From NCBI GenBank assembly GCA_900313925.1, contig OMTF01000026.1:1198-65197 (forward strand): a stretch of DNA of 64,000 bases, read 5' to 3'. Below the pieces are notes generated by a model. That model was not told the DNA's origin. It did no database searches and saw nothing but the letters and a program-made list of their open reading frames with translations. The stretch is from an uncultured Eubacteriales bacterium (GTDB lineage: Bacteria > Bacillota > Clostridia > Oscillospirales > Oscillospiraceae). Positions within the stretch are counted from its first letter, which is position 1; every line of letters begins with the position of its first letter. Position numbers and translations under genes: made by a program. This document shows, piece by piece, positions 7,930-29,705 of the stretch.

Positions 7930-8070
7930 ATCGAAAAAAAACAAATTGTAAACAACTTCCTCCTAAAAGGAGGGGAAATGGGAGAATTTCAAAAGGTCCG
8001 GCCGGAAAAGAAAAATTGCTCCGGCGGGCAGCCGGAGCGATTTCTGCTTTGGGATGTTGGAGAAAGAAAA

Positions 8071-8133
8071 GTGCTGTGTAAGAAGTTTCTATCGATGGGG
8101 AAAGAATACAGAAAAAATATGACGGGATCATGA
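8071..8133 (+). CDS. candidate 20-codon small ORF, copy B (MLCKKFLSMGKEYRKNMTGS); extends in frame to ATG 7978 as a 51-codon ORF
   Basis: GGAG-N8-GTG. The upstream in-frame ATG at 7978 sits 4 nt after AAGGAGGGG. Confidence 0.3.
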   Translation: MLCKKFLSMGKEYRKNMTGS

Positions 8134-8193
8134 ATCACGGAAAAACAAATTGTAAACGGTTTCGTAAAATCTGGACTTTTTCTGCCCCGTAAG

Positions 8194-8223
8194 TTGACAA
8201 AAGCGGAAAATAACAGGTAAGAT
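8194..8223 (+). promoter_or_regulatory. sigma-A type promoter for dfx
   Basis: TTGACA-N18-TAAGAT, about 50 nt upstream of the dfx start. Confidence 0.5.
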
Positions 8224-8275
8224 GAACCCGTACCGTATTGTAAATAGAAAAGGAACGGTAAAGGAGGTACCTGCG

Positions 8276-8650
8276 ATGCAGATCAAATTCTATCAGTGCA
8301 AGCACTGCGGAAACATCATTGCTTATGCAAAAAGCAGCGGGGTAAAGGTGTCCTGCTGCGGGGAACCGATGGAAGAAATGATTCCGAACACAACGGACGC
8401 GGCACAGGAAAAGCACATCCCGGTTTGGACACAGGAGGGAAACAAAGTTTCCGTAACGGTGGGAAGCACGTTGCACCCGATGACGCCGGAGCACTATATT
8501 CAGTGGATCTGTCTGCAGACTAAAGAGGGAAACCAGCGAAAGGAACTTGCCCCCAACACGGATCCCAAAGCCTGCTTTATGCTATGCGATGGGGATGAAG
8601 TGGAAGCCGTATACGCGTATTGCAACCTGCACGGCTTCTGGAAAGGCTGA
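8276..8650 (+). CDS. dfx: desulfoferrodoxin (2Fe superoxide reductase)
   Basis: 124 aa. N-terminal CxxC...CC desulforedoxin centre (CKHCGNII...SCCGEPM). C-terminal His/Cys ligands (EKHIPV, HPMTPEHYIQW, CNLHGFW). SD AAAGGAGG lies 8 nt upstream of ATG 8276. Confidence 0.9.
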   Translation: MQIKFYQCKHCGNIIAYAKSSGVKVSCCGEPMEEMIPNTTDAAQEKHIPVWTQEGNKVSVTVGSTLHPMTPEHYIQWICLQTKEGNQRKELAPNTDPKACFMLCDGDEVEAVYAYCNLHGFWKG

Positions 8651-8668
8651 CCGCAAGCGATGCAAGAC

Positions 8669-8697
8669 CTGCCTTCGAAAGAAGGCAGCTTTTTTTT
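8669..8697 (+). terminator. intrinsic terminator after dfx
   Basis: CTGCCTTC-GAAA-GAAGGCAG followed by CTTTTTTTT. Confidence 0.8.
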
Positions 8698-8839
8698 CCA
8701 AAAAAGGCCGATCAAAGTGTAGCAGGGAGCACAATTCCGAACCGGGCGCTCTACTATAATAAATCCAGAACGAAAAGCCGCGAAGTTCGCGGGAAAGAAA
8801 GGGACGCAAAGAAATCTGGATACACAAGGGGGAAACATC

Positions 8840-9478
8840 ATGGCATCAAAACTTTATGCAGATAACACGGTCCGGGACTTTACCAAAGCGGTGGCCGATC
8901 CCGAAGGAATGCCCCAGGGAATAAGCGTGCTTGCCGCCTCTGCAGCCGGCATGACGGCGATCGCCCTGCGAGCAGCGTTAATCAGTAAGAAGGAACGTCC
9001 GGAGGGAACAAAGGATGAGCAGCTGGAAGAATGCATAAAAGTCCTGGAACTGGCGCGCGGAAATATGCTGTATCTGATGGACGACGGCATCCGCGCCGAG
9101 CAGCCGTATAAAAAATACGCGGCTTCGGATTTGACCAATACGGAAAATGTGGAGCATTTTCAGGCATCTCTGCGCGTTGCAAACACAATTCCGACCGATC
9201 TGATGTACAAAATGCAGGATCTGTCCCGCTATCTGATTTACCTTGCCGAGGAAGGCAGTCAGGAAGCTCTTGACGATACAGCGATTGCGCTGCAGCTGTG
9301 CAAGTCGGTTCTGCACGGGGCGCGCGCGGTAATTCTGGCAAGGGCGCAGAAGATGACGGATGATATTTTTGCCATGACGATTCGCAGGGAAGCGGAGATT
9401 CTTTTCCAGGAAACCCTGCCGAAAATCGACGCGGCGCTGGATACCGTCGAGGAACGGTTGAAAAGAGAGGATCCATAA
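8840..9478 (+). CDS. fchA: cyclodeaminase/cyclohydrolase family protein (FchA/FTCD C-terminal-like, methenyl-THF cyclohydrolase type)
   Basis: 212 aa, all-helical. VRDFTKAVADPEGMPQGISVLAASAAGMTAIALRAALIS resembles the FTCD_C family N-terminus. Confidence 0.8.
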   Translation: MASKLYADNTVRDFTKAVADPEGMPQGISVLAASAAGMTAIALRAALISKKERPEGTKDEQLEECIKVLELARGNMLYLMDDGIRAEQPYKKYAASDLTNTENVEHFQASLRVANTIPTDLMYKMQDLSRYLIYLAEEGSQEALDDTAIALQLCKSVLHGARAVILARAQKMTDDIFAMTIRREAEILFQETLPKIDAALDTVEERLKREDP

Positions 9479-9481
9479 GCG

Positions 9482-10300
9482 ATGCAGATTCTCTCAGTGG
9501 CCCCGATACGGGAACGGCTTTGGCAGCAGATTTCCGAGAAGAGACAGGCTCTGCAGAACACGCCCCGCCTGGCAATTCTGCGCTGCGTAGAAGGGGCGGA
9601 AACCGCGGCGGCGGAAGAAAAGATTCGCCGGGCCTGCCGGAAAGCCGAAGCGGAGGTCTGGACCGCGGCGCTGCCGAATTATATGGATGAGAGGCTTCTT
9701 GTCAAAGCCGCGCACCAGGTGGGCGTGGACCCTTCCGTGCAGGGCATCTGCGTGTTCTGCCCGGAAGCCTACGATAAAGGCCGAATCGGAGCGGCGATCG
9801 GAACCGGCAAGGACGTGGGAGGCTTCGGCTTTTCGGACGGCGGAATTTATCCTCCGTGCGCCCTGGAGGCCGTGATGCGGGTAATCGCAGCCTACGGCCT
9901 CAGCGGCAAAGGAAAAACCGCGGCGATTCTGTATCGGGATAAACCGTTTGCCGAATCGCTCGGTGCGGCGCTGGTCCAAACGGGTGCGGAGGTGAAAGTA
10001 TGCCGATGGAAGCAGCCGGGATCAGAAAAATTCTGCCAGGATGCCGAGCTTCTCATTTCAGCCGTTGGAATTCCGGGGGCGGTAGGAAGGGAATATCTTT
10101 CCAACGGACAGACCGTTCTGGACGCAGGATGCGGCATGAACCAGGAAGGGAAGATATGCGGAGACTTTGCGCGGGGAGCAGCCGAGCGGGCGGAAACAGC
10201 CGTCCTTTCCCCGGAAGGTCTGGACGCGCTTTTCCCGGAACTGCTGGTTCTGCATCTGCTGGAAGCCGCCGAAAGGCAGGAAAAAGAGAGAAATTACTGA
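9482..10300 (+). CDS. FolD-family (methylene-THF dehydrogenase/cyclohydrolase-like) protein, divergent
   Basis: 272 aa with FolD-like layout (ILRCVEG...; KDVGGFG; LLISAVGIPGAV; VLDAGCGMN). The usual GRSxxVGxP and PGGVGP motifs are not conserved. Confidence 0.75.
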   Translation: MQILSVAPIRERLWQQISEKRQALQNTPRLAILRCVEGAETAAAEEKIRRACRKAEAEVWTAALPNYMDERLLVKAAHQVGVDPSVQGICVFCPEAYDKGRIGAAIGTGKDVGGFGFSDGGIYPPCALEAVMRVIAAYGLSGKGKTAAILYRDKPFAESLGAALVQTGAEVKVCRWKQPGSEKFCQDAELLISAVGIPGAVGREYLSNGQTVLDAGCGMNQEGKICGDFARGAAERAETAVLSPEGLDALFPELLVLHLLEAAERQEKERNY

Positions 10301-10309
10301 GAAAAAAGA

Positions 10310-10338
10310 TTGACAAACACAGGGCTTTTTGCTACAGT
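10310..10338 (+). promoter_or_regulatory. sigma-A promoter of the rplJ-rplL operon
   Basis: TTGACA-N17-TACAGT. Confidence 0.6.
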
Positions 10339-10344
10339 ATGGGA

Positions 10345-10450
10345 GCGCTCCAAAGACAGCAGGTCGGGCAACTGTAAATCCTGCCGAGGAAAGCAAACGA
10401 AATGCTTATTGCCTCTGTCGTCTTCGGATAGACAGAGGTTTTTCTTTTGA
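10345..10450 (+). promoter_or_regulatory. ribosomal protein L10 leader-type cis-regulatory RNA with attenuator hairpin
   Basis: An untranslated leader of about 130 nt lies between the promoter and the rplJ SD. It ends in GCCTCTGTC-(N11)-GACAGAGGT plus TTTTTCTTTT (10411-10448), the arrangement known for Firmicutes rplJ leaders. No covariance-model search was run. Confidence 0.55.
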
Positions 10451-10479
10451 GCGTGAATTTCATTGTGGAGGTGAAACAC

Positions 10480-11019
10480 ATGCCGAACGCCAAAGCTCTG
10501 GAAGAGAAGAAGGCGGTTGTCGATGCGCTGACGCAGCGCCTGCAGAACTCGGAATCGGGCGTCTTTGTTGATTACAAGGGCATTACCGTGGAGGAGGATA
10601 CGGCGCTTCGCGCAGAGATGCGCAAGGAGGAAGTGGAGTATTCCGTCATCAAGAATACGCTCCTTCGATTCGCACTGAAGAATGCCGGACTTGAAGATCT
10701 CGAGTCGATTCTCAGCGGCAGCACATCGCTTGCTACGGCAAAGGGTGATCCGATTGCACCCTTCCGGATTCTTGCGGATTATTCTCAGAAGCTGGGCGAT
10801 GACCGCTTCAACATCAAAGCGGCATTCATGGACGGGGCCGTACTGCCGAAAGAGGCAATTATGGAACTGTCGAAGCTTCCTTCCAAGGAAGGACTTCTCT
10901 CTGTGGTTCTTGGGACGATGCTGGCTCCGATTACAAGCCTGGCCGTAGTTCTGGACCAGATCGCGAAAAAACAGGGCGCCCCCGCCGCTGCGGCGGAAGC
11001 CGAACCGGCAGCGGAATAA
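10480..11019 (+). CDS. rplJ: 50S ribosomal protein L10
   Basis: [44 protein letters not shown] is typical of L10. SD GGAGGTG lies 7 nt upstream of ATG 10480. Confidence 0.95.
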
Positions 11020-11062
11020 AAAACGAGCGCTGCACGAAAAATTATTAATGGAGGAAAAAATT

Positions 11063-11440
11063 ATGGCTAGCGAAAAAGTTACAGCCGTTATAGAAGAAAT
11101 CAAAGGGCTGACCGTTCTTGAACTCAGCGAACTTGTCCATGAGCTGGAGGAAACCTTCGGCGTTTCTGCAGCCGCTGCAGCCGCACCGGCCTCCGCCGCT
11201 GCCGCCGCTCCGGCAGAAGAAGAGAAATCCGAGTTTGATGTTGTTATGACCTCCTTCGGAGCGAACAAGATCGCTGTTATTAAGGAAGTCCGTACCATCA
11301 CGGGTCTCGGTCTGAAGGAAGCGAAGGACCTCGTCGAGAGTGCTCCGAACGCGAAGATCAAGGAAGGCGCAAACAAGGACGAAGCCGAAGAGATCAAGGC
11401 AAAACTGGAAGGCGCCGGCGCAACCGTAGAGCTCAAGTAA
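11063..11440 (+). CDS. rplL: 50S ribosomal protein L7/L12
   Basis: [34 protein letters not shown], an Ala-rich hinge, then [31 protein letters not shown] lies upstream of ATG 11063. Confidence 0.95.
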
Positions 11441-11453
11441 AAAGAATTCAGAA

Positions 11454-11476
11454 GGAAAAGATCCGATATCTTTTCC
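11454..11476. terminator. possible terminator hairpin between convergent rplL and the MBL hydrolase gene
   Basis: GGAAAAGAT-CCGAT-ATCTTTTCC. There is no clean T-run on the plus strand and a T-rich tract on the minus strand. Confidence 0.35.
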
Positions 11477-11602
11477 GAAAAGCAAAGCGAACCCCACAAG
11501 CGGGATATCAAAGCAGGCCTCAGGATGGGCAGGAAACGGAAGGTTTGAAGCCCATGGAGAGGAAGCCGCTTTTCCGTGTGCGGGGTTCGTTTATTTCCTA
11601 AG

Positions 11603-12223
11603 TTAATTCATATGCATCGCCTGACGGCAGTAATAGTTAAAGTTGCGTTCCCGCTCCAGTGTGGAAGCGTCCATGTGACCGGGATAGACATCATATTCCC
11701 CGGGAAGCTCGCACAGGCGCTTTAAGCTCCGCAGCTCCTGCATCATGTCGCCGCCGGGAAGATCCGTCCGCCCGCAGCTTCCGCGGAATAGCGTATCCCC
11801 ACAGAAAATGGCGTCTTCGCACACCAGCGTGGTGCCGCCGGGCGTGTGTCCGGGCGTATACAGCACGGTAAAGTCAAGGCCGGCAAGATGAAGAATCTGC
11901 CCGTCTTTTTCGTAGTAGTGCACGCCGGCGGGGGCTTGAAATCCGGGCCCGGCCGTTCCGGCAGGGGCGGCCGCTGTATCCAGGCGGTTGAGATACACCG
12001 GAGCGCCCGTCTGCTCCATGACGGGGATGAGGGCTCCCGTATGATCCCAGTGCGCATGGGTTAGAAGTATCGCGCGGCAGGAGAGGCTGTTGTCCTCCAG
12101 ATAATCCATAATCGTATTGGATTCATCCCCGGGATCAATGACAACGCACTCCAGCGTTTTTTCATTCGTAACGATGTAGCAGTTGGTTTCCAACTGGCCG
12201 ACAGGTAAACACTTGACTAGCAT
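11603..12223 (-). CDS. MBL-fold metallo-hydrolase (glyoxalase II-like)
   Basis: 206 aa with the LLTHAHWDHTG (HxHxDH) motif and downstream GHTPGG. SD GGGAGGAC is present. Confidence 0.85.
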   Translation of the reverse strand: MLVKCLPVGQLETNCYIVTNEKTLECVVIDPGDESNTIMDYLEDNSLSCRAILLTHAHWDHTGALIPVMEQTGAPVYLNRLDTAAAPAGTAGPGFQAPAGVHYYEKDGQILHLAGLDFTVLYTPGHTPGGTTLVCEDAIFCGDTLFRGSCGRTDLPGGDMMQELRSLKRLCELPGEYDVYPGHMDASTLERERNFNYYCRQAMHMN

Positions 12224-12234
12224 ATTTGTCCTCC

Positions 12235-12681
12235 CTATAGTTCGGTACTGTCCAGCAGAATAGTTACGGGACCGTCATTCACGGAATGAACAAGCATATA
12301 TTCGCCGAAGACGCCGGTTTGAACCGAAAAACCTTTTTCCCGGCATAGACGGACGACTTTTTCATAAAGGGGAACGGCGGTTTCCGCCTTCGCGGCTTTA
12401 TTAAAGCTGGGACGCCGGGACTTTTTGCAGTCGGCAAACAGCGTAAACTGACTTACAATCAGAATCTCTCCGCCGATCGCGGCAAGATTCCGATTCATTT
12501 TTCCCTGTTCGTCGGCAAAGACCCGGAGACCGCAGATTCGGTCGGCAATCTTTTCCGCGTCCGCCGCGGTATCCTCTTCCCGAACGCCCAGTAAAACGAG
12601 AAATCCTTTCCCAATGGAAGAAAAAACGCGGCCGGCAACATCCACCGACGCAGACTGAACGCAGGTAACAACTGCACGCAT
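12235..12681 (-). CDS. dtd: D-aminoacyl-tRNA deacylase
   Basis: MRAVVTCVQSASVDV...GKGFLVLLGV...SQFTLFADCKKSRRPSF...NDGPVTILLDS is typical of Dtd. Start at 12681 is preceded by CAGGAGGAAATCCC; the longer ORF extension overlaps relA. Confidence 0.92.
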   Translation of the reverse strand: MRAVVTCVQSASVDVAGRVFSSIGKGFLVLLGVREEDTAADAEKIADRICGLRVFADEQGKMNRNLAAIGGEILIVSQFTLFADCKKSRRPSFNKAAKAETAVPLYEKVVRLCREKGFSVQTGVFGEYMLVHSVNDGPVTILLDSTEL

Positions 12682-12703
12682 GGGATTTCCTCCTGCTTTT
12701 CGA

Positions 12704-14986
12704 TTATTTCGTTCGGCGCTCCACAGAGGAAACACCATGAATTCCGGAGAGCTTTTTCTCAATTTTCTGCAGCTCTTCCAAGTCTTTGACTTCCAACGTG
12801 ATGGAGCAGAGTGATTTGCCATCGCTGGTATCCTGCGCATGCAGGGCATGCACCTTGGCATTGATTGCGTTCAGTGCGGTGGCGATTTCCATCAGCGTAC
12901 CGGCCTGGCTGGAAAACGTGACTAAAAGCGTGGTCGTGTAGGTATCGCTGATTTCCTCCGCCCAGCTGACGGGAATCCATCGTCCGGCATCTTCGGGGGC
13001 TTTTGAGCGGCGCAGGTAGTTCGGACAGTCCTTCCGGTGGATGGAAACGCCCTGACCGTGGGTAATGTAGCCGATGATGTCATCCCCGGGAATCGGGGTG
13101 CAACACCGGGAAAATTTGATAAGCACGTTGTCAAGGCCGGCAACAAGAACGCCGTGCACCGGCTTCCCCGTGGCTTTCTGGGACTGCTGCACGCGACGTT
13201 CCGCCGCTTCGTTGACCTTGTCCAGCGCGGTCTTCCGGTCGGAGGTTTTCTGAATCCGCACCAGCTCATCGTACATGCGGTTTACCGCACGGGTAGCGGT
13301 CATGCCGCCATATCCGATGGCGGCGTACATATCGTCGATATTCGAATAGGAAATCTTCTTCAGCAGCGCGGGCAGCACCGATTCATTGGTGAAATCCTCC
13401 ACATGCAGGCCACGGCTGCGGATTTCCCGCTCAAACATATCCTTGCCGGTCGCGACGTTTTCCTCCCGCCGTTCCTTTTTAAACCACTGCTTGATTTTCG
13501 CGCGGGCGGACCCGCTTTTCGCCATATGCAGCCAGTCGCGGCTCGGACCGGGCGAGTTTTTCGAGGTCCGGATTTCCACCACGTCACCATTCTGCAGGAC
13601 ATGGTCGAAGGTGACGATACGTCCGTTTACGGTAGCGCCGACCATGGAATTTCCAACACCGGAGTGTATACTGTAGGCAAAATCAATCGGTGTTGCCCCC
13701 GCCGGAAGATTGATTGCGTCTCCTTTTGGAGAGAAAACGAAAACCTCATCGGAAAACATGTCGATCTTCAGGTTATGGAAGAAGTCCGAGGCTTCCGAAT
13801 CCTGCTGGCTTTCCAGAAGGCGCCGAATCCAGGCGTAGCTTTCTTCGTCGCCGGTCTTGACGGAAACGTCCCCCATCTTGTATTTCCAATGTGCGGCAAC
13901 GCCGTATTCGGCGGTGCGGTGCATGTCCCAGGTGCGGATCTGCACTTCGAAGGGAATGCCTTCTGAGCCGATGACCGTGGTATGCACGGACTGGTACATA
14001 TTGGGCTTCGGGGTAGAGATGTAATCCTTGAAACGACCGGGAACCGGCTTATACATATCGTGAATAATGCCGAGCACGTTATAGCAGTCCGGAATCGTAT
14101 CCACGATGACCCGGAACGCGCACAGATCGAAAATGCCGTTAATCGGAAGATTCTGCGAGTACATCTTGCGGTAGATGCTGTAGATGTGCTTGATGCGGCA
14201 GAAAACAGAGCAGTGCACGTTCACTTCGGCAAGGCGCGCTTCGATTTCGCCCTGGATTTTATCCATAAATTTCTGGAGCGTCGGCATCCGAGCGTCCAGA
14301 ACATCCGTAATTTCCTTGTATCCAGTGGGATCCAGGTATTTCAGCGAGAGGTCCTCCAATTCCCATTTGGCCCGCTGCAGGCCGAGCCGGTGGGCGATGG
14401 GGGCATAGACCTCCATAGTCTCCAGGGATTTTGAACGCTGCTTTTCCTCGGTCTGGTATTCCATGGTCCGCATATTATGGGTGCGGTCCGCAATTTTAAT
14501 CAGGATAACCCGGATATCCTTAGACATCGCCAGAAGCATCTTCCGCATATTCTCCATCTGCAGATCTTCCATATTTGTATACTGCACGCGGGTAAGCTTG
14601 GTGACGCCTTCCACGAGATCGGCGACCGAGGGGCCGAACTGTTTCTGGATATCCTCGTAGCCAAGATCGGTATCTTCAATAATATCGTGCAGGAGCGTTG
14701 CGACGATAGAATCCTCGTCGAGCCCCATATCCACCGCGATCTCCGCGGCGGCGACGCAATGCGTGACATACGGCGAGCCTTCCTTGCGGAATTGACCTTC
14801 GTGAGCGGCTTTCGCCATCTCATACGCTGCACGGATGCGATTCATGTCCATTTTGACGCCGCCGGCTTCAATCTTTTTTTCCAAATCGGCATACATGACA
14901 TCCGGATCCAGCCCGCCCTTCGAGGCGGGAACCGACGCCGGTGCAGCGGCCGGCAGCTTTTCGTAGATCACAGTGTCGTCAGACAT
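12704..14986 (-). CDS. relA: bifunctional (p)ppGpp synthetase/hydrolase, RelA/SpoT family
   Basis: Contains an HD hydrolase domain (HDIIEDT), a synthetase domain (DLCAFRVIV..YISTPKPNMYQSVHTTV..EVQIRT), and TGS and ACT regions. Start MSDDTV at 14986 follows AAGGAGGTGG. Confidence 0.95.
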   Translation of the reverse strand: MSDDTVIYEKLPAAAPASVPASKGGLDPDVMYADLEKKIEAGGVKMDMNRIRAAYEMAKAAHEGQFRKEGSPYVTHCVAAAEIAVDMGLDEDSIVATLLHDIIEDTDLGYEDIQKQFGPSVADLVEGVTKLTRVQYTNMEDLQMENMRKMLLAMSKDIRVILIKIADRTHNMRTMEYQTEEKQRSKSLETMEVYAPIAHRLGLQRAKWELEDLSLKYLDPTGYKEITDVLDARMPTLQKFMDKIQGEIEARLAEVNVHCSVFCRIKHIYSIYRKMYSQNLPINGIFDLCAFRVIVDTIPDCYNVLGIIHDMYKPVPGRFKDYISTPKPNMYQSVHTTVIGSEGIPFEVQIRTWDMHRTAEYGVAAHWKYKMGDVSVKTGDEESYAWIRRLLESQQDSEASDFFHNLKIDMFSDEVFVFSPKGDAINLPAGATPIDFAYSIHSGVGNSMVGATVNGRIVTFDHVLQNGDVVEIRTSKNSPGPSRDWLHMAKSGSARAKIKQWFKKERREENVATGKDMFEREIRSRGLHVEDFTNESVLPALLKKISYSNIDDMYAAIGYGGMTATRAVNRMYDELVRIQKTSDRKTALDKVNEAAERRVQQSQKATGKPVHGVLVAGLDNVLIKFSRCCTPIPGDDIIGYITHGQGVSIHRKDCPNYLRRSKAPEDAGRWIPVSWAEEISDTYTTTLLVTFSSQAGTLMEIATALNAINAKVHALHAQDTSDGKSLCSITLEVKDLEELQKIEKKLSGIHGVSSVERRTK

Positions 14987-18194: not shown

Positions 18195-18223
18195 TTGATA
18201 ACGCACATATTTAATATTAAAAT
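18195..18223 (+). promoter_or_regulatory. candidate sigma-A promoter of the giant adhesin gene
   Basis: TTGATA-N17-TAAAAT inside a strongly AT-rich island (about 18180-18290) in otherwise GC-rich DNA. It lies about 100 nt upstream of ATG 18320. Confidence 0.45.
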
Positions 18224-18230
18224 AATATAA

Positions 18231-18263
18231 TTTGATAGAAAAAAGTTTGATAGATTTGATAGA
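18231..18263 (+). promoter_or_regulatory. three direct copies of TTTGATAGA (candidate operator) just downstream of the candidate -10
   Basis: Exact 9-mers at 18231-18239, 18246-18254 and 18255-18263. Confidence 0.55.
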
Positions 18264-18319
18264 AATGAAAAACATACATTTTGAAACAGGTTGGAATTTC
18301 GGAAGGAAGCAGTAAAGAC

Positions 18320-18430
18320 ATGAAACTCGAAACCAAGAGAAAGAAGAGTGTTGCAGCGGCTCTGGCCGCCATGGTAATAACAGCCGCGCTTTTTTCGTCG
18401 AATATTGGGAGAGCGGACGAGCTGCCCCCC
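18320..18430 (+). other. Sec signal-peptide-encoding segment of the giant adhesin, in a different frame from the body
   Basis: ATG 18320 follows GGAAGGAAG and encodes MKLETKRKKSVAAALAAMVITAALFSSNIGRADELPP. It ends in the C6 run at 18425-18430. As assembled, this frame runs on to a stop at 18667. Confidence 0.8.
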
Positions 18431-21400
18431 GGCACCCGTGACAGAAAAGACCGTCGTTTCAAATGGCGACGGCAGCTATCAGCTGACGCTCAGCGTCACA
18501 GGCGCGACCGCCTCTCAGGACCCGGTAGACGCAAACGTAGTGGTGATCATGGACCGGTCAAGCGGCATGAGCAACGATTCGGAGCCCGGTGCCAAGAAAA
18601 TAGACGTGGAGATAGCGGCGGTAAAGAAAATCTCCGAACTGATCGAAACGAACAACGTAAACGATGAGTCACACGTTCACGTCGCCGTCGTCGACTACGG
18701 AGCGACTGCCAATCTGTCCAATTTTGGGGAATTTGAGGAAGAGGGGAAATCCTGGACCGACAGCAAGTCTGACTTTGAAGATTACGTTAACAATGTCTCG
18801 GTAGATTCGGTAGATATTACTAATTCATATTCACAAGGGAGAAACTGGGAGGCGGCTCTGTCCGGGGCCCTGGTTGCCGCAAACGCTATGCAGCGCACCG
18901 ATGAGAAGGGCAATCCGGTACCGACGTACATAGTGTTCCTTTCGCAGGGAGATCCTACTCTTCGCCAGACGGCGGTATATCCCATGAGGAGTATTAGATA
19001 CTTCTCACAGAATCGCGACCCCTCCACGAGAAAACCGAGAGATAATTCTGCATGGACAAGGCCGAACCTCCCCCCTTACGGCAGCGGGTGGAACGATCCG
19101 AATTCTTACAATTACGCGCAAGCATCCTCTGTGGCGGAACAAATCGTCGGCGAGGGCTATCACCTTCTTACGGTCAATATTTTTAATGATTCCGCGAACC
19201 CGAAACTGGAAGTTCTGGCTAATGAGAAAAATGTGCCGTATTATAACGCTCCAACGTCCGCCTATCTTCAGACTGCGATCGAAAGCATCAAAGAGAAAAT
19301 AAAGACCCCTGTTTCCTATGCATATAAGAACGTAAAAATTACAGACACGCTTACGGATATGACCGCATCCGACATCGAAGACGGCGTTGCGGACGGGGAA
19401 GTATCCTATTCCATCAAGCGCGAGTCCGATGAACAGGCGCACGAGTGGTATGGCGCTCCTTCGCTTACGTTCGAGGACGGAAAAGCCGTATGGGATCTGG
19501 GGGACATGGAACTGGAAGAGGGCGCCGAGTATTCCGCCTCATTCCGCGTCTGGCCGAACCAGACGGCGTATGACATTCTGGCCGATCTGAAAAACAGGGT
19601 AAAGAATTACGATTCTGATCTGAGTGAAAGCGAGAAAAAACAGATCATTCAGCTTGAGGACGACTCCGGGTACGTTATCGGATACGGATTCAAGACCAAC
19701 GTCGATTCCGACTCACAGGTGGATTATACGCATGTGATCCGCGAAAATATCAGCGAACTGCCGGATGGCACGACTCCGGGAGCGACATATACCGAGACCC
19801 GAAATGGAATCGACTACACTGCAGTTTATACAAATAACGATGACGGAAGAACGTACACAAAGACGATGACCGCAGCCGGTCAGTCCCAGCTGCCTGTCCC
19901 GGACCTCATTCCGCTGGAGGCGAAGCAGATCCCTGTAGAGAAAATATGGTACGACGCGGCAGATAACAGTCTGCGCCCGGAGGAGGTCAAATTAGAGATA
20001 TTCCGCGATGACGCCACGGAAGGCGAAAAAAGCGTGGGGGAGAGGGTATTAAATAGTAGTAACGCCTGGTCTCTTCAGGTCTATATCGCGCCGGGACTCA
20101 TCGATAAAGACGGAAATGTCCTGAACGCAGGGCACGACTATTACGTTAAAGAAGAAAATCTGAACGACGCTTATGAGATGTTCTGTGATCCTAAGCATCC
20201 TATGGTCGTAAACGGAAATCTGCAGAGTTCTTCCACAGAGAATACTCCGGCTAAATTACAGGCGGAAAACAATCTGAAAGGGAGCCTTATCGTGACAAAG
20301 ACGGTCAGAAAAGCAGCTTCTGACCTCACGCCGGATCCGGAAACTGAATTCACGTTCCAATTCAGTCTTAAAGAGTCTTCGGCCGAGGACGCATCGGCAT
20401 GGTCCGGCACGGCAAAGATCGTGAATAAGGACGACTCGTACACAGAAGTGCCCGTGACCGACGGAACGGAGATAAGGATCCGCTCTTCACAGACCATCCG
20501 TATAGATAAGATGCCGAACGGGACGTACTATGAAGTCAAAGAGGTCCGCCTCCCAGACGGATATACGCTAGACGAACTGAAGGGATCCGAGGGGACGACT
20601 TCCGATCTCGCAAACCTGACGATCTCAGGCGAGGCCAAAACGCTCACGACGCAGAACCTTGTATTCAACAATATGTACACGGCTGCCCCTGTCGACATCA
20701 CGATCCCGGTGCATAAGCACGTTTCGGGCGAAGACGTTCCGGACATAACGGGAGCGTACACGTTTACTCTGACCGCAAGCGAGGGAGCCCCGCTTCCGCG
20801 CGTTCAGTCGAAGACCAATCCGGACGCGGACGGCGGGAAGATTCTTTTCGGAACCGATGACGATAAGATCACTTTCACGAAGAAAGGTGAGTATATCTAT
20901 ACGGTGACGGAGACGAACACCCCAGAAAAAACCATTCCGGGCATGACAAACGACCCGGCTTATCAACGCAACATCGGCGTTGTGATCGAAGACGACGGGA
21001 AAGGGCATCTGACCGCGAAGCTTACCATGACAAAATCCGATTCGGACGGATGTGAGAGTTTCACCAACACCTATCTCTCGCAGGATGCGAAGGTAAGCAT
21101 ACCGGTTTCGAAAGGTCTCGAGGTACCTGACGGGCTTACCGGGCCAGACATCACAGGAAAATACAAGTTCACGCTTACGGCGGTCAGCGCATCTCTCGAT
21201 GATGGAAGAGCCCTTGCGGCGGCAGATATGCCGATGCCGGCATCGGGTGGCGAATCGGTTCTGAACAGCGAGTCGCGCGGAGGAAATATGACGTTCGGTG
21301 AGATCGCTTTTGACGAACCGGGACAGTACACATATCAGATCACCGAGAGCAACAATACATCGGACGGCAGAGCGCTCCCCGGCGTTACGAACGACAGCGA

Positions 21401-24400
21401 ATCGACAAAGACGGTCGTCGTCACGGTCACCGCTTCCAACACCGTGATCGAAGGAAAAAACGTCAGGATACTCAGCGCTACCCTGCCTACCACGACTTTT
21501 ATCAACAAATACAGCGCGGCGCAGGTCTCTGCCTCCGTACCCGTAAAGAAGATGCTCGATTCCACAACCGGGTTCAAACCGGACATCGCAGGGAAATACA
21601 CATTCTATCTGGCGACGACGGATCCGGATATGCCTATGCCGGAGGGAACGCAGACGCTTTCCGACGGAACTCGCTATGTGACAGTTACAAACCCTGACAG
21701 CGACGGAGGGACCGCATCCTTCCCTGCCATCACGTTCACAAAAGAAGGAACGTATGACTACGCCGTGCGCGAGACGGGGAAAGTCGCCGGAGTGACGAAC
21801 GACGCCAATCCGGTAAGGAGAGTCTCGATTGTCGTTGTCGATGATACGAAAGGGAATCTGTATATCGACGATGCCAAGTCCATCGGGCTATCCGAACCTA
21901 CGACGTTCACGAACAAGTACTCCGTCAGCTCTGTCATGGGCTCGATCACACTGAAGAAGACGCTGGCCTGCGACGCCGGTCTTACCCCACCGGATATCAG
22001 TAACGCTTATACGTTCCGGATCACGGCTCTGACGGATGGCGCGCCTATGCTGGACGGCGCGGGGACCGGTACCGACGACGACGGGCACAGATACGTCACG
22101 GTAACAAACCCTGACAAAGACGGCGGAACGATCTCCGTGAATAACCTCGCATTCACCCGGGAGGGGACATACCGCTATAAGGTCGAGGAAACGGGCAGCA
22201 AAGCCGGGGTAGAGAACGACAGCACGCCTGTCCGATATATACAGTTCGTCGTCACGGACGAACATGACGGCACACTTTCCGTCAAGATAAAGACGACAGA
22301 CGCGGACGGCGGTAACGCCACCGACGTCCCGGATAACACAGTCGAATTCGTAAACACGTATTCGGTCAAGGGCGTCACCATAAACGCCTCGGTAAGGAAG
22401 ACACTCTCCGTGCCTTCGGGATTTACCGCGCCGGACGTCACCGGCAAGTTCACATTCACGCTGTCAGCGTCGGGAGACGTTCCGATGCCGGAAGGATCCC
22501 AGACCTCATCGCAGGGCGTGACGGCAAAGGCGGTCGTGAATCCGGACGCGGACGGCGGCACGGCTTCATTCGGGGACATCACTTTTACAAAGCCGGGGAC
22601 ATATAAATACGGCATTTCCGAAAACAGTGACAACTCCCTGAACGACATCATACAAAACGACGCGGCAAACCCTAAGATCGCGACAGCCACGGTGACCGAC
22701 AATTCCGACGGCACCCTGCGCGTGGTCGTCACGTCCACATATAAAGACGTGCTCGGAAACGACACCACGGTCACTTTATACGACAGCAAAACCTCGGAGA
22801 GCGCGGAGCCTGTTTCTTTCACGAACACGTATAAGCTGCCGGATCCGGTCACCTGCATCATCCCTGTGACGAAGGAGATCGACCGCCCTGCCGGTTCAAA
22901 CCCTGAGAGCATAAAGAACGACTTCACCTTCAGCATCGAAGCGGATTCCGCGGGAGCCCCGCTGCCGGCGGAAAACACGTCGATAACGAATCCGGACGAT
23001 GAGGGAGGCACAGCCGAATTCGGAGCCATCTCCTTCACATCTCCGGGCACTTACAGATATAAGATCACCGAATCGAATACGGATCCTGCAAACCCGCCAG
23101 AGGGCTTTACAGAAGATGAGAACAATCCTAAGTACGTGACCGTCGTCGTGACCGACAATAAAAACGGTTCCATGAATGCCAAACTCTACGGAGCAGACAC
23201 GGTCTGGAATTCCGATGGCACCGTGAAGGAGGAATACAGTTCCACGACTTTTATTAATAAGTACGACACCTCCGCCGTGCTGGTGAACATCCCTGTCACG
23301 AAGGCGATAGACAGCGCCGAAGGCACGTCCCACCAGGACGCCACAGGTCTGTTTTCGTTTACGCTGACAGCAGGTAGGAACGACGCGGGCGTTGAAACCC
23401 CTATGCCTTCGGGCGAAGGGAATGTTGCGTATAACCCGGATTCCGATGGCGGTACGGCATACTTCGGCAGCATCACGTACTCAAAAGTCGGGGTGTACCA
23501 CTATACAATAAAAGAAAACGACACGGACACGGAAACCGGCGGATTCACATACGACAAGAGCGAAAAAGAAGTAATCGTCACGGTATCGGATAACGGACAG
23601 GGTCAGCTCGTTGCGGAGATACAAGGTGCGGACTCCACGACGGATAAGACCGTTTCTTCCACAACTTTTACAAACTCGTACACTTCGAAAGGAACGTACG
23701 GATTCACTGCCGCGAAGAAACTGAATGCCCTGAACGGCACGACGGGACCGGACATCACGAATAAATTCCGCTTTACTCTCACGGCAGACGACGCATCGAA
23801 TCCTATGCCTTCCGGATCGATCACCGCGTCGGACGGAACGGTCTCTAAGACAGTCGAAGGACCTAACGAAGCAGGCTACGTGGTCTTCGGGAGCGCCGAA
23901 TTCACGAAAGAAGGCGAGTACTCCTATACGATCCGCGAGTCGGGAGGCAGCCTGCCGGGCGTGGAGAACGACACGGCGGAAAAGAAGATCACGCTGAGCG
24001 TCAAAGACGGCGGCATGGGCAAAATGAACATCACGGTAAAAGACGGCTCAGATAAACCGGCTTTCGAGAACACTTACGCCGCCGAAGGCACAGCCGAAAT
24101 TTCCGTGTCCAAAAAACTCAGCGGCGTTCCATCCGGCGCAGCCGTCGACATCAGCAGCAAATATCGCTTCACACTCACTGCGGACGAAGGCACTCCGCTG
24201 CCGGAGACGACCTCTTACACGAACCCGGACTCCGACGGAGGAACCGTCAAGTTCAGCGGCATCAAATACACCTCTCCGGGGCAGTACACTTACACGATAA
24301 CCGAATCCAACGAAGGCGACGCTGTGCCGGGAGAGACAAACGACGCGAATTCCTCGCGCACGGTTGTCGTGAAAGTGACCGATAACAAAGACGGAACCTT

Positions 24401-27400
24401 GATGACCCGTGTCACCGGAGATACCACATTTACGAACGTATATAAGGCAGATCCAGTAAACGTTTCCATCCCGGTGCGCAAAGGCATCGACAATCCTCAG
24501 AACGTGATCTTGCCAGATTTCACGGGCGACTTCACGTTCACGCTGACGGGAGAAGACAATGCACCGCTCCCGGAGGTTACGGTCCTTACCAACCCGATGG
24601 AGAGAGGCGGCGACCTCACGTTCGGCAGCATCGAATTCACGGAAGCCGGAACATACACGTATAAAATAAAAGAGACTTCGACCAAAGATGAGGCTACGAC
24701 AGCCGTCATCTTCGACAGCGAGCCCGAGAGGACCGTGACGGTCGTCGTTACCGATGACGGCAGCGGCAGACTCAGCGCGGCGGTATACGAGGGGAGCGCA
24801 GAGACAGGCTCTGAAATAACCGCTGAGTCCCCCTTGACGTTTAATAACACATTCTCGCCTGCCGTAATCCAGGTGAGAGCTTATAAGACTCTCCTCGGGC
24901 GCAACATGATGCCGGGAGAAAAATTCACGTTCAGGATCGAGCCCGGAGACGAGAGCACTCTCGAATCCCTTAGAGATGACCAGATAGCGCTTACAGACGG
25001 TACTACGCCGGCGAATTACCTGGAGACCACGGTATCGAACCTCACAGACGGTCACAAGACGGTATTCTCGTTCGGCAGCGCGATATTCCGCGAGCCGGGG
25101 GACTACTACTTCAAAGTCACTGAGGTCGTTCCTGCCGACGCGGACAAAAAACCGAACGTTACGTACGACAGTTCAGAACAGTATCTGAAGATAACCGTCA
25201 CGCAGAACGCAGACAAAACGTTGTCGGCCGCGGCTTCGACCGTGGCCAAAGGATCGGACGGCAGCTGGTCTGACGATACCGACGGAACGGGCTTTGTCAA
25301 TAAATATATCGTTTCGACCGTATCGGAAAAACCCTGGATTAGCAAAATCGCAAGATCAAGTCCGGACGACACGGGCGTTGCGGTGCCGTTCAACGCAGGA
25401 GATTTCACGTTCACCGCATACTATAAGAAAGGCGAACTGGAGAATACGCCTGTCAGTTCAGTGACGAACCCTGACGATTCCGCAGACGGCAGTGACCGGT
25501 TCGAATTCAACCACATCGAATTCTTCACCGCGGACGCTCCAGCGGGAGAGTTCACGCTCCAGGAACTCGTCGACAAGGGTACCGCAGAAAAGACCGTCAC
25601 GGCGGACGGTGTGACGACGTATAAGATCGACTATATCATCAAGGAAACGGAGGAGCCGGACCAGTACACAACGAACGACCAGGGATATTCATTCCAGATG
25701 GTAGTGACGGACGACGGCAAAGGAAACCTCACCGTTGCGCAAGATCCTGACTATGACTTTGAATTCGACAACTATCTGAAGTCGGCTGCAGTTAGAGTGA
25801 CGCTGGACGGACGCAAGACTCTGAGCGGACGCGAACTGAAACAGGGCGAAGTGACGTTCCGGCTGGAACCGGCTGATAATGCGAACCCTATGCCTTCGGA
25901 AGGCACGGAGACCGACGCGGACGGGAAAAAATACAAGACCTCGACGAACGTAGTCGGCGGCGAAGTACATTTCGGCAATATCGTGTTCACTCAGGATAAT
26001 ATGGTCGGCGTACCGGTGAATGGATACAGGGACTTTAAATATACCGTATCTGAGGCACCTACGACCGCGGGCAGCATGCCTAACGTAACGTTCCAGGATC
26101 CAGAGGAGTTCACGATCCGGGTATTTAAGAAAATTAAAGAGGGAAGTACTTCGGATTTCGTACTTGACTACGAGATTCTTGACAAAGACGGGAATAAAGT
26201 TAAAACCGCGTTCATCTTCGAGAACGTCTACACACCGGAGCCTGCAACGGCAACCATCAAAGCGTATAAGGCGCTGGAGACGACAAACAGCGCAGGCTTA
26301 ACGTGGAAGAGCTTCAGCGGAAAGTTCAGCTTCATTCTCGAAGCCGCGAACAACGACGCGGGCGTACAGACGCCGATGCCGGAAAACGGAGTGAAGACCG
26401 ACGAAGACGGCGATCGATACGTGGTCGTGACGCTGACGGATACTTCTGCGAACGGCGCGCCTCTGACCGAGCCAGCGTGCGTGGAGTTCGACAGCATTAA
26501 GTTCGAAAAACCGGGTATCTATAACTATTTGATCACAGAGACAGGAAACTCCGGCGGCGTCACCAACGACCGGGACACCGAACGCCGCATAGCAGTCCGG
26601 GTGACCGACGATCCTTCTACCGGCAGACTGTCTGCAAAAGTATATAACGAGAACGGCATTCCGAAAAGCGAGGATGTCAGCAGCCGCACGACGTTCACGA
26701 ACAAATACGCCACAGCCCCTGCGACGGCTGTGATAACGGTCACGAAGAAACTCTCTGTGCCTGAAGGCACGAACGGACCGTCCGACATCGCAGGCAAGTT
26801 CACATTCACTCTGCGTCCGGGCACAAACACTGCGGAAGGCAGCATTGAAACGCCGATGCCGGAAGGATCGCCTTCCGACAGCGAAGGTGTCTATGCGACG
26901 GTGACGAACCCGGACAAAGACGGCGGGACTGCGTCGTACGGCAGCATCAAGTTCGAAAAACCGGGTGTCTATACTTACACAATAAGCGAGAGCGGCACGG
27001 CAGACGGCATCCTGAACGATTCTGAAAAGACCGTGACCGTTACGGTCACAGACCTCGGAAACGGCAAATTGAAAGCCGATGTGACCGAACAGGCTACGTT
27101 CACGAACTCATACTCCGTCAAACCTGTTTCGGCAGAACTCACGGTGACGTGCGCTTTGAAGTCTTCGACCCCGAGGATCGAACTTCTGAATATCAAAGAC
27201 CAGTATACGTATACCATCGGGACTGCGACCAGAGGCCCTTCAGCTCCGATGCCTGAAAAGACCGTGATCAAGAACACGAGCGACAGCGCAGACGAGAACG
27301 GACGCGGTACGTATTCGTTCGGAAACGTGGAGTTCACCGCACCGGGGACGTATGTGTATCTGATTACACAGAGCGGGAACATTCCGGGAGTCGTGAATGA

Positions 27401-29705: not shown

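Follow-up and report, generated by a model that had tools for sequence, protein, structure and literature searches.

What kind of surface protein carries some twenty similar domains in a single chain, and is it still made by the bacterium whose genome encodes it? These questions are raised by positions 18320 to 29705 of a 64,000-nucleotide stretch of DNA from an uncultured bacterium of the Oscillospiraceae (contig OMTF01000026.1); the whole stretch is called the window here. An initial annotation had read the interval as one protein of about 3,800 amino acids, with a pilus-tip-like von Willebrand factor A (vWA) head on a repetitive stalk. Our analysis indicates that the gene probably encodes a fibrillar adhesin, anchored to the cell wall, of an uncultured Oscillospiraceae from the rumen or gut, with an intact form of 3794 amino acids, and that it has recently been inactivated in the window.

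The length of the interval, 11386 nt, is indivisible by three, and the interval holds two frames and not one. The longest open frame on the plus strand runs from 18405 to 29705 (3766 codons, with a mechanically assigned TTG start). The ATG at 18320 is a good start, placed 11 nt behind a ribosome-binding-site-like GGAAGGAAG (18301–18309, plus strand), and it opens a signal peptide of the textbook type, MKLETKRKKSVAAALAAMVITAALFSSNIGRADEL (18320–18424, plus strand), the frame of which differs from that of the rest of the gene. The two frames join at a run of six cytosines (C6; 18425–18430, plus strand) directly after codon 35; with five cytosines (C5) they yield a protein of 3794 amino acids. 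Compared with the C5 allele, which is in frame, the inactivating lesion inserts one base. The adhesin body (18431–29705, plus strand) is open to the end and has no second lesion. The original reading stands in that one giant plus-strand gene ends at 29705 and attains about the proposed length after repair to C5; it fails in that the gene is not one frame. We number residues by the "repaired" protein of 3794 amino acids, after removal of one C at 18425–18430. As written, the open reading frame (ORF) of the signal peptide enters out-of-frame sequence and the body is left devoid of an export signal; no other in-frame start with a signal peptide was found for the body. Since C6 puts the signal peptide out of frame, no secreted full-length protein would be expected from the window copy, which we interpret as a frameshifted, loss-of-function allele. 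The gene in the present genome should be recorded as frameshifted.

A frame that is broken at one homopolymer and intact elsewhere could be suspected of an assembly or sequencing error, homopolymer miscounts being a common type of error, or the frameshift might be bypassed in expression; in either case the gene would be functional as it stands. The same C6 is present, however, at two further loci (L046 and L047), 99.98% identical to the window, and the C6 contigs come from two other samples (ENA ERZ931635, run ERR2027900, project PRJEB21624; and Logan ERR983264). The 99.98%-identical contig stems from the cow-rumen project PRJEB21624. The placement of the organism in the Oscillospiraceae is based on its TypA, which shares 82–84% identity with that of named metagenome-assembled genomes. 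Because independent contigs carry the identical C6, we take it for a real allele and not an assembly error. The gene caller starts the window-type product at a GTG at 18438, and the body has no alternative in-frame start that would supply a signal peptide. Twenty-four contigs with the window-type recJ collapse to one similar place, and the one shown carries a 3755-amino-acid product that starts at GTG 18438; the window-type upstream ORF was found in two places, each with a 3755-amino-acid product. No match came from a pattern scan of metagenomes across the C tract. On this evidence it is very unlikely that the gene is functional in its present form.

Domains were called by scanning Pfam and NCBIfam models against the repaired protein, whole and piece by piece, and the repeat units were delimited by an iterated hidden Markov model (HMM) seeded on one unit. 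The stalk array comprises 20 consecutive FctA/Spy0128-type units (20676–29270, plus strand, residues 786–3650) with a mean length of 143 amino acids and a mean column identity of ~26%, as the initial annotation had counted them. Pfam FctA (PF12892) matches 18 stretches of the repaired protein (E 1.3e-287), and NCBIfam TIGR03786, the streptococcal pilin isopeptide linkage domain, matches 16. When divergent, insertion-bearing units were scored alone against the FctA threshold of 22.1 bits, U12 fell just below it (20.2 bits) and U18 lay at it (22.1 bits); the single-unit scores of U16 and U17 are 58 and 54 bits. In the alignment of the 20 units, the Phe and Asn of the F-x-N-x-Y motif are invariant, and the Lys of V-x-K-x-L and the Glu of Y-x-Y-x-I-x-E are more than 90% conserved. 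The unit profile matches the N-domain of Spy0128 (3b2m, E 7.6e-13), and its triad columns align to TVTKNL, YYYKVTEE and FKNSL of Spy0128, which in published work on Spy0128 are the motifs of Lys36, Glu117 and Asn168. An AlphaFold2 (AF2) model of U06–U07, computed from an alignment of unit pairs, is all-beta and of high quality (predicted local distance difference test, pLDDT, 91.9; predicted template modeling score, pTM, 0.81). In each unit of the model the first strand bears the Lys, a central strand the Glu and the last strand the Asn. The top Foldseek matches of this model are Spy0128 (3gle, E 2.5e-9), T-antigens and FctB. FctA is listed among the CnaB-like families, with the bond between the adjacent first and last strands (PMC12617251). 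The proposed FctA/Spy0128 type of the units is thus upheld by family models, profile and predicted structure. The Lys/Glu/Asn signature, which had been ascribed to all 20 units, is complete in 18 of them, at homologous positions, and we infer from the alignment and the model that these 18 are placed to form a Lys–Asn isopeptide bond.

The two exceptions are neighbors. U16 and U17 (27120–27980, plus strand) lack the cross-link Lys and the catalytic Glu, with Cys2944/Gln3017 in U16 and Gln3091/Gln3168 in U17; the Asn is kept in both. A joint loss of Lys and Glu would be expected if the two residues act in concert. In P0027, a metagenomic ortholog, U16 has both Lys and Glu, and U17 is Gln/Gln, the same as in the window. 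U17 (27555–27980) is therefore an apparently conserved non-locked unit in both species, and the U16 loss is seen only in the species of the window. It is conceivable that U17 serves as a deliberately extensible link within a rod that is locked elsewhere.

The number of units appears to be stable. At the DNA level the repeats are well diverged, as had been stated: no array is detected by Tandem Repeats Finder (TRF), and shared stretches reach at most 84 nt, at 70% identity. Strains at 99.4% identity show no repeat-length indels, and the unit count is 20 both in the window protein and in the ortholog of 62% identity. A periscope-type protein, for which length variation had been envisaged, was rejected in view of the diverged repeats and the constant unit number across strains and two species. 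A stalk of ester-bond or thioester domains was likewise rejected, as the Pfam scan gave no TQ or TED match.

The head precedes this stalk. It begins with a vWA-like region with a degenerate metal-ion-dependent adhesion site (MIDAS) (18537–19310, plus strand, residues 73–330). DUF7604 follows (19323–19733, plus strand, residues 335–471, a Pfam match), then an insertion-rich linker to residue 539, a first Cna_B domain (19938–20180, plus strand, residues 540–620; 24.2 bits at a threshold of 22.3) and DUF7601, a CnaB-like family (20280–20633, plus strand, residues 654–771; 51.8 bits). The initial annotation's CnaB-like domain coincides with this Cna_B match, DUF7604 had been left out, and the domain called SpaA-like is best described by DUF7601, since the SpaA model scores 20.9 bits on the same stretch, below threshold; the FctA model is also weak there. 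The DUF7601 family is listed in Table 1 of PMC12617251 and is predicted to carry an isopeptide bond. Its residues Lys660, Glu741 and Asn784 are invariant across the head alignment.

No Pfam VWA model exceeds its threshold in the window head: VWA_2 reaches 22.3 bits against 27 and PF00092 does not match. The orthologs P0027 and P0080 pass Pfam VWA with 45–46.5 bits. A profile of the head family, compared with known structures, matched vWA folds, with 9no5 at E 1.3e-8 and further matches to Mfa5 of P. gingivalis (6tnj), PTMP1, PilB of S. sanguinis (7b7p), the vWA domains of collagen VI and a streptococcal "cell wall surface anchor family protein" (3tw0/3tvy). A phmmer search with the head and three stalk units against PDB sequences gave no match, whereas the profiles did. 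The vWA call of the initial annotation is thus sustained by profile homology to solved vWA folds, but it lies below the Pfam threshold and its MIDAS is degenerate. The window head reads DRSSG, QGR and SQG, in comparison to DRSAS or DTSGS (DxSxS), GGS or GGT, and SDG in the relatives; three of the five metal-site residues are replaced, and the site is incomplete. Given this loss in the window species, ligand binding by its head is probably metal-independent or weakened. It should be noted in the annotation that most of the metal site of the vWA head is lost.

The head as a whole has a stand-alone counterpart. Its ~785 residues are collinear, end to end, with proteins of ~750 amino acids of the order VWA-DUF7604-Cna_B-DUF7601/DUF5979 (26–29% identity; Olsenella P0008 is an example), and the alignment spans the mature N-terminus (APxxxKT...TLSVTG) through the last F/Y-x-N motif. 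The ~750-residue proteins differ in that a sorting signal ends them at the very point at which the FctA array of the window begins, and in that their MIDAS is canonical (DTSGSM, GGTNW, SDG). P0008 differs further in adjoining genes for an S26 peptidase, a pilin, a sortase and an FctA-domain protein. Outside the streptococci, an FCT-like pilus operon is seen at 8001–13796 of locus L058 (Olsenella sp., GCA_040884255.1), in the order VWA-DUF7604-Cna_B-DUF5979/DUF7601 tip-like protein, small ORF, S26 signal-peptidase-like protein, DUF7601 pilin, sortase and FctA-domain protein. Because the head is collinear with the ~750-residue proteins, and one of these lies in a pilus operon, the label "tip-pilin-like" is justified by homology and gene context. 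The description of a pilus-tip-like head fused to a single-chain stalk is likewise supported by this collinearity and by the FCT-like operon of Olsenella.

At the other end of the chain, the C-terminal CnaB domain that had been predicted is a second Cna_B domain (29295–29549, plus strand, residues 3659–3743, E 8.3e-20). It is followed by the putative sorting signal (29601–29705, plus strand), composed of GVNTGD, the 22-residue hydrophobic stretch TGTIAGWLLLMACSLLTALTAA, REKHRK and the stop. The tripartite layout of the proposed sorting signal is thus present, with GVNTGD instead of LPXTG and with no match to a Pfam anchor model. The relatives end in x-x-x-TGD motifs, for example IPKTGD, GVSTGD and DVQTGD, and for this reason GVNTGD is supported as a sorting motif. 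The neighboring phosphoesterase gene ends in GPNTGD in other strains. Motifs of the NVQTG type are sortase substrates in Clostridia, namely in C. difficile (PMC4155245).

The kinship of head and stalk domains to pilus tip and backbone proteins could also mean that the protein is a true pilin, polymerized by a pilus-specific sortase into a multi-subunit fiber, and not a monomeric wall-anchored adhesin. The pilin motif YPK or [FWY]PK[ND] does not occur, however, in the 3794 amino acids; the window holds no sortase, no S26 chaperone and no further pilin gene, and the long relatives mostly have no sortase within 10 kb. We consider a polymerizing pilin extremely improbable. The comparison with Spy0128, the FctA major pilin of S. 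pyogenes (3b2m), is instructive in this regard. The two share family models and a triad in register, and Spy0128 is the best structural match; yet Spy0128 is a two-domain subunit of ~300 amino acids that is polymerized by sortase via a pilin lysine, whereas the window protein has 20 domains in one chain, no pilin motif and two units (U16 and U17) that lack Lys and Glu.

Is this architecture new, as the initial annotation implied? A word-indexed homolog search returned very few relatives of head or units, those of the head being only ~750 amino acids long, and an exhaustive HMMER search was used for the architecture counts. The head profile retrieved 660 cluster representatives at E <= 1e-30. 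Among the best 150 of these 660, 71 are longer than 1500 amino acids, 27 longer than 2500 and 11 longer than 3500; with an HMM of the window units, 32 of the same 150 have at least five FctA-like units and 13 at least ten, the maximum being 26. Among the reference-genome matches listed, the head is joined to an FctA array in Coriobacteriia, Lachnospiraceae, Christensenellales, Erysipelotrichaceae, Mogibacterium and Saccharibacteria, the head without FctA-like units is found also in metagenome-assembled genomes of Oscillospiraceae, identity is 33% at most, the species of the window is not included, and a sortase within 10 kb is usually absent. In three loci (L008, Olsenella sp. KH3B4; L013, a Coriobacteriales metagenome-assembled genome; L028, bacterium OL-1), the homologous giant adhesin genes are split into two to three consecutive ORFs; frame disruptions, real or assembly-derived, seem to be frequent in this gene family.

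In fibrillar adhesins the stalk domains are arrayed along one chain and not distributed over multiple subunits, and VWA is the second commonest of their adhesive domains (PMC8286594); tandem isopeptide domains are typical stalks (PMC12617251). The features by which Monzon et al. (2021) define the class, namely one chain, an adhesive domain at the distal position, a stalk of tandem domains and an anchor at the proximal position, are all predicted here. The implied novelty is therefore absent: by homology the fused architecture is known and widespread among the relatives, and its class is that of the fibrillar adhesins (PMC8286594). With the published members (PMC8286594, PMC12617251) the window protein shares the N-terminal adhesive domain, the tandem stalk of cross-linkable immunoglobulin (Ig)-like domains and the C-terminal Gram-positive sorting signal. 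It differs in its combination of VWA-DUF7604-Cna_B-DUF7601 with an FctA array, in belonging to an x-x-x-TGD family for which no experimentally studied member was found, and in that the window copy is frameshifted. Cpe0147 of Clostridium perfringens (4mkm), as cited in PMC12617251, resembles the window protein in its adhesive head and its single-chain, autocatalytically cross-linked Ig-like stalk, but it uses Thr–Gln ester bonds in a TQ domain and is a weak structural match (Foldseek E 5e-3). A further comparison is with the ortholog P0027 (3885 amino acids). Over the full length the two proteins share 62% identity; their domain order agrees, and the 20 units of one correspond one to one to those of the other. 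Unlike the window copy, P0027 is intact all the way from signal peptide to anchor. Its VWA domain exceeds the Pfam threshold and has a MIDAS that reads DRSASM / GGSNW / SDG, Lys and Glu are retained in its U16, and AQTGD serves as its sorting motif.

A second lineage of the species (L001-type; six loci, L001–L006) is 99.4% identical to the window, has C5, and has its signal peptide in frame with the body. In this lineage a 1-nt deletion at 19136 (GGCGGAACAAATC to GGC-GAAAAAATC) splits the gene into 295 and 3499 amino acids, and part of the lineage adds a stop at E934 (position 21120). A survey of alleles anchored on typA covered 23 contigs, the product being taken as the last gene piece. The intact product of 3794 amino acids occurs in one of the 23, that of 3755 amino acids in three and that of 3499 amino acids in two; the remaining 17 have a product of 2825 or 2817 amino acids. 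In the 3' part of the gene, the intact allele (L048) shares its single-nucleotide polymorphism (SNP) profile with the second lineage. Among the alleles of the species are no fewer than two independent knock-outs (+1 C at 18425; -1 nt at 19136, subsequently E934*) and a rare intact form, and because of this polymorphism we view the inactivation as recent and recurrent.

Comparison of the two lineages gives, for the stalk, 22 synonymous and 15 non-synonymous substitutions and a ratio of non-synonymous to synonymous substitution rates (dN/dS) of 0.21; for the vWA region the corresponding figures are 3, 13 and 1.29. The C-terminal end of this region, around 19136, carries a cluster of 13 substitutions between the lineages within 19107–19280, and nine of these are non-synonymous; the cluster could be a recombination tract or could reflect relaxed or diversifying selection. 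Relative to P0027, the window species lost the MIDAS residues together with the Lys and Glu of U16. An ancient pseudogene was rejected in view of the open 11.3-kb frame, the stalk dN/dS and the intact allele in the species. The gene appears, from this record, to have been functional until recently, with its head under relaxed or changed constraint.

Homopolymers at signal-peptide junctions are where reversible phase switches sit. The C run at 18425–18430 could be such a switch, set by slipped-strand mispairing to ON at C5 and OFF at C6, with a fraction of the cells expressing the protein. The single-base change in a homopolymer lies exactly at the junction of signal peptide and mature protein, the other 11.3 kb of the frame are fully open, the stalk is under purifying selection (dN/dS 0.21), and C5 and C6 alleles coexist in the species. 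However, six bases are short for an efficient slippage tract, and the tract length tracks lineage: the six L001-type loci are all C5, and the window type is read as the 3755-amino-acid product. The second knock-out is not a simple homopolymer slip, and it gained a nonsense mutation, which fits irreversible loss. Phase variation is not favored for these three reasons, and we hold it to be unlikely.

Our preferred interpretation, a fibrillar adhesin that has recently been lost in the window, includes a model of the intact protein. A Sec signal peptide would export it, and a sortase would cleave the GVNTGD signal and link the protein to peptidoglycan. DUF7604, two Cna_B domains, DUF7601 and the 20 Ig-like domains of FctA type would make up the rod between the two ends. 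The first-strand Lys and the last-strand Asn of 18 of these 20 units, assisted by the central-strand Glu, would form a spontaneous Lys–Asn bond as in Spy0128. These bonds would give a stalk resistant to protease and to force, very roughly 100 nm in length, that would hold the vWA-type head, homologous to pilus tip adhesins, off the cell. The extra C after codon 35 places the signal peptide out of frame, and the window allele would give no secreted protein.

Several points weigh against this interpretation. The AF2 model of the 753-residue head, from an alignment of eight sequences, is poor (pLDDT 46), and because it is unusable the vWA fold is assigned by sequence homology. The isopeptide bonds are deduced from alignment and model topology. 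The C-terminus is matched by none of the Pfam anchor models, and no sortase (an ORF with the TLxTC motif) lies within the 64-kb window. The intact allele L048 is known from its called product length, the DNA seen being the last 3.7 kb. Finally, the "loss of function" could be a reversible OFF state, given the homopolymer at the junction, and consensus assemblies of metagenomes hide minority tract lengths.

A promoter-like TTGATA-17-TAAAAT is located upstream of the gene (18195–18223, plus strand); it is a consensus match only, with one site found where 0.7 are expected. Three direct copies of TTTGATAGA, read from the AT-rich leader (18231–18239, 18246–18254 and 18255–18263, plus strand), sit between the promoter-like site and the ribosome-binding site of the adhesin gene and may be a candidate operator for a regulator. 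Further upstream, the minus strand carries recJ, relA/spoT, dtd and a gene of the metallo-beta-lactamase fold. Downstream lie a MatE-like fragment, a purple-acid-phosphatase-like metallophosphoesterase, YibE/F, a transglutaminase-like gene and typA. The MatE-like ORF directly after the adhesin gene (29790–30377, minus strand, 195 amino acids; partial match of 29.8 bits) looks like a remnant of an efflux transporter gene. The secreted metallophosphoesterase gene (30337–32517, minus strand) has a deletion junction near 30359. In other strains its product has 797 amino acids, a signal peptide and a C-terminal GPNTGD, hydrophobic stretch and RRENGRK; the adhesin gene, which had been called the only clearly accessory system in the window, is therefore accompanied there by a second surface-protein gene, since this neighbor is a sortase-type substrate in those strains. 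The window copy has a stop at W62 and a 677-nt deletion that removes the sorting signal. Together with the frameshift in the adhesin, these lesions leave two adjacent putative sortase substrates broken in the window strain.

For the family, the gene adds an uncharacterized but typical member to the fibrillar adhesins with isopeptide stalks, in a rumen Oscillospiraceae lineage that has no cultured representative. The diverged FctA units whose triads are intact offer a possible source of orthogonal self-locking protein modules. The polymorphism is the sole point beyond routine annotation: intact, frameshifted, and frameshifted-plus-nonsense alleles occur in one species, and their coexistence is a small natural experiment on the cost of a surface protein of 3800 residues. 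A broader reading, which we put forward with considerable doubt, is that a giant adhesin is under recurrent, possibly reversible knock-out in rumen/gut populations, with counter-selection against its display and the C tract as an on/off switch. It is suggested by the independent lesions in different lineages, the homopolymer at the junction, the rare intact allele and the neighboring sortase-type substrate that is also broken. If true, it would imply strong counter-selection against display of the protein, for example by host antibody, or by phage using the protein as receptor.

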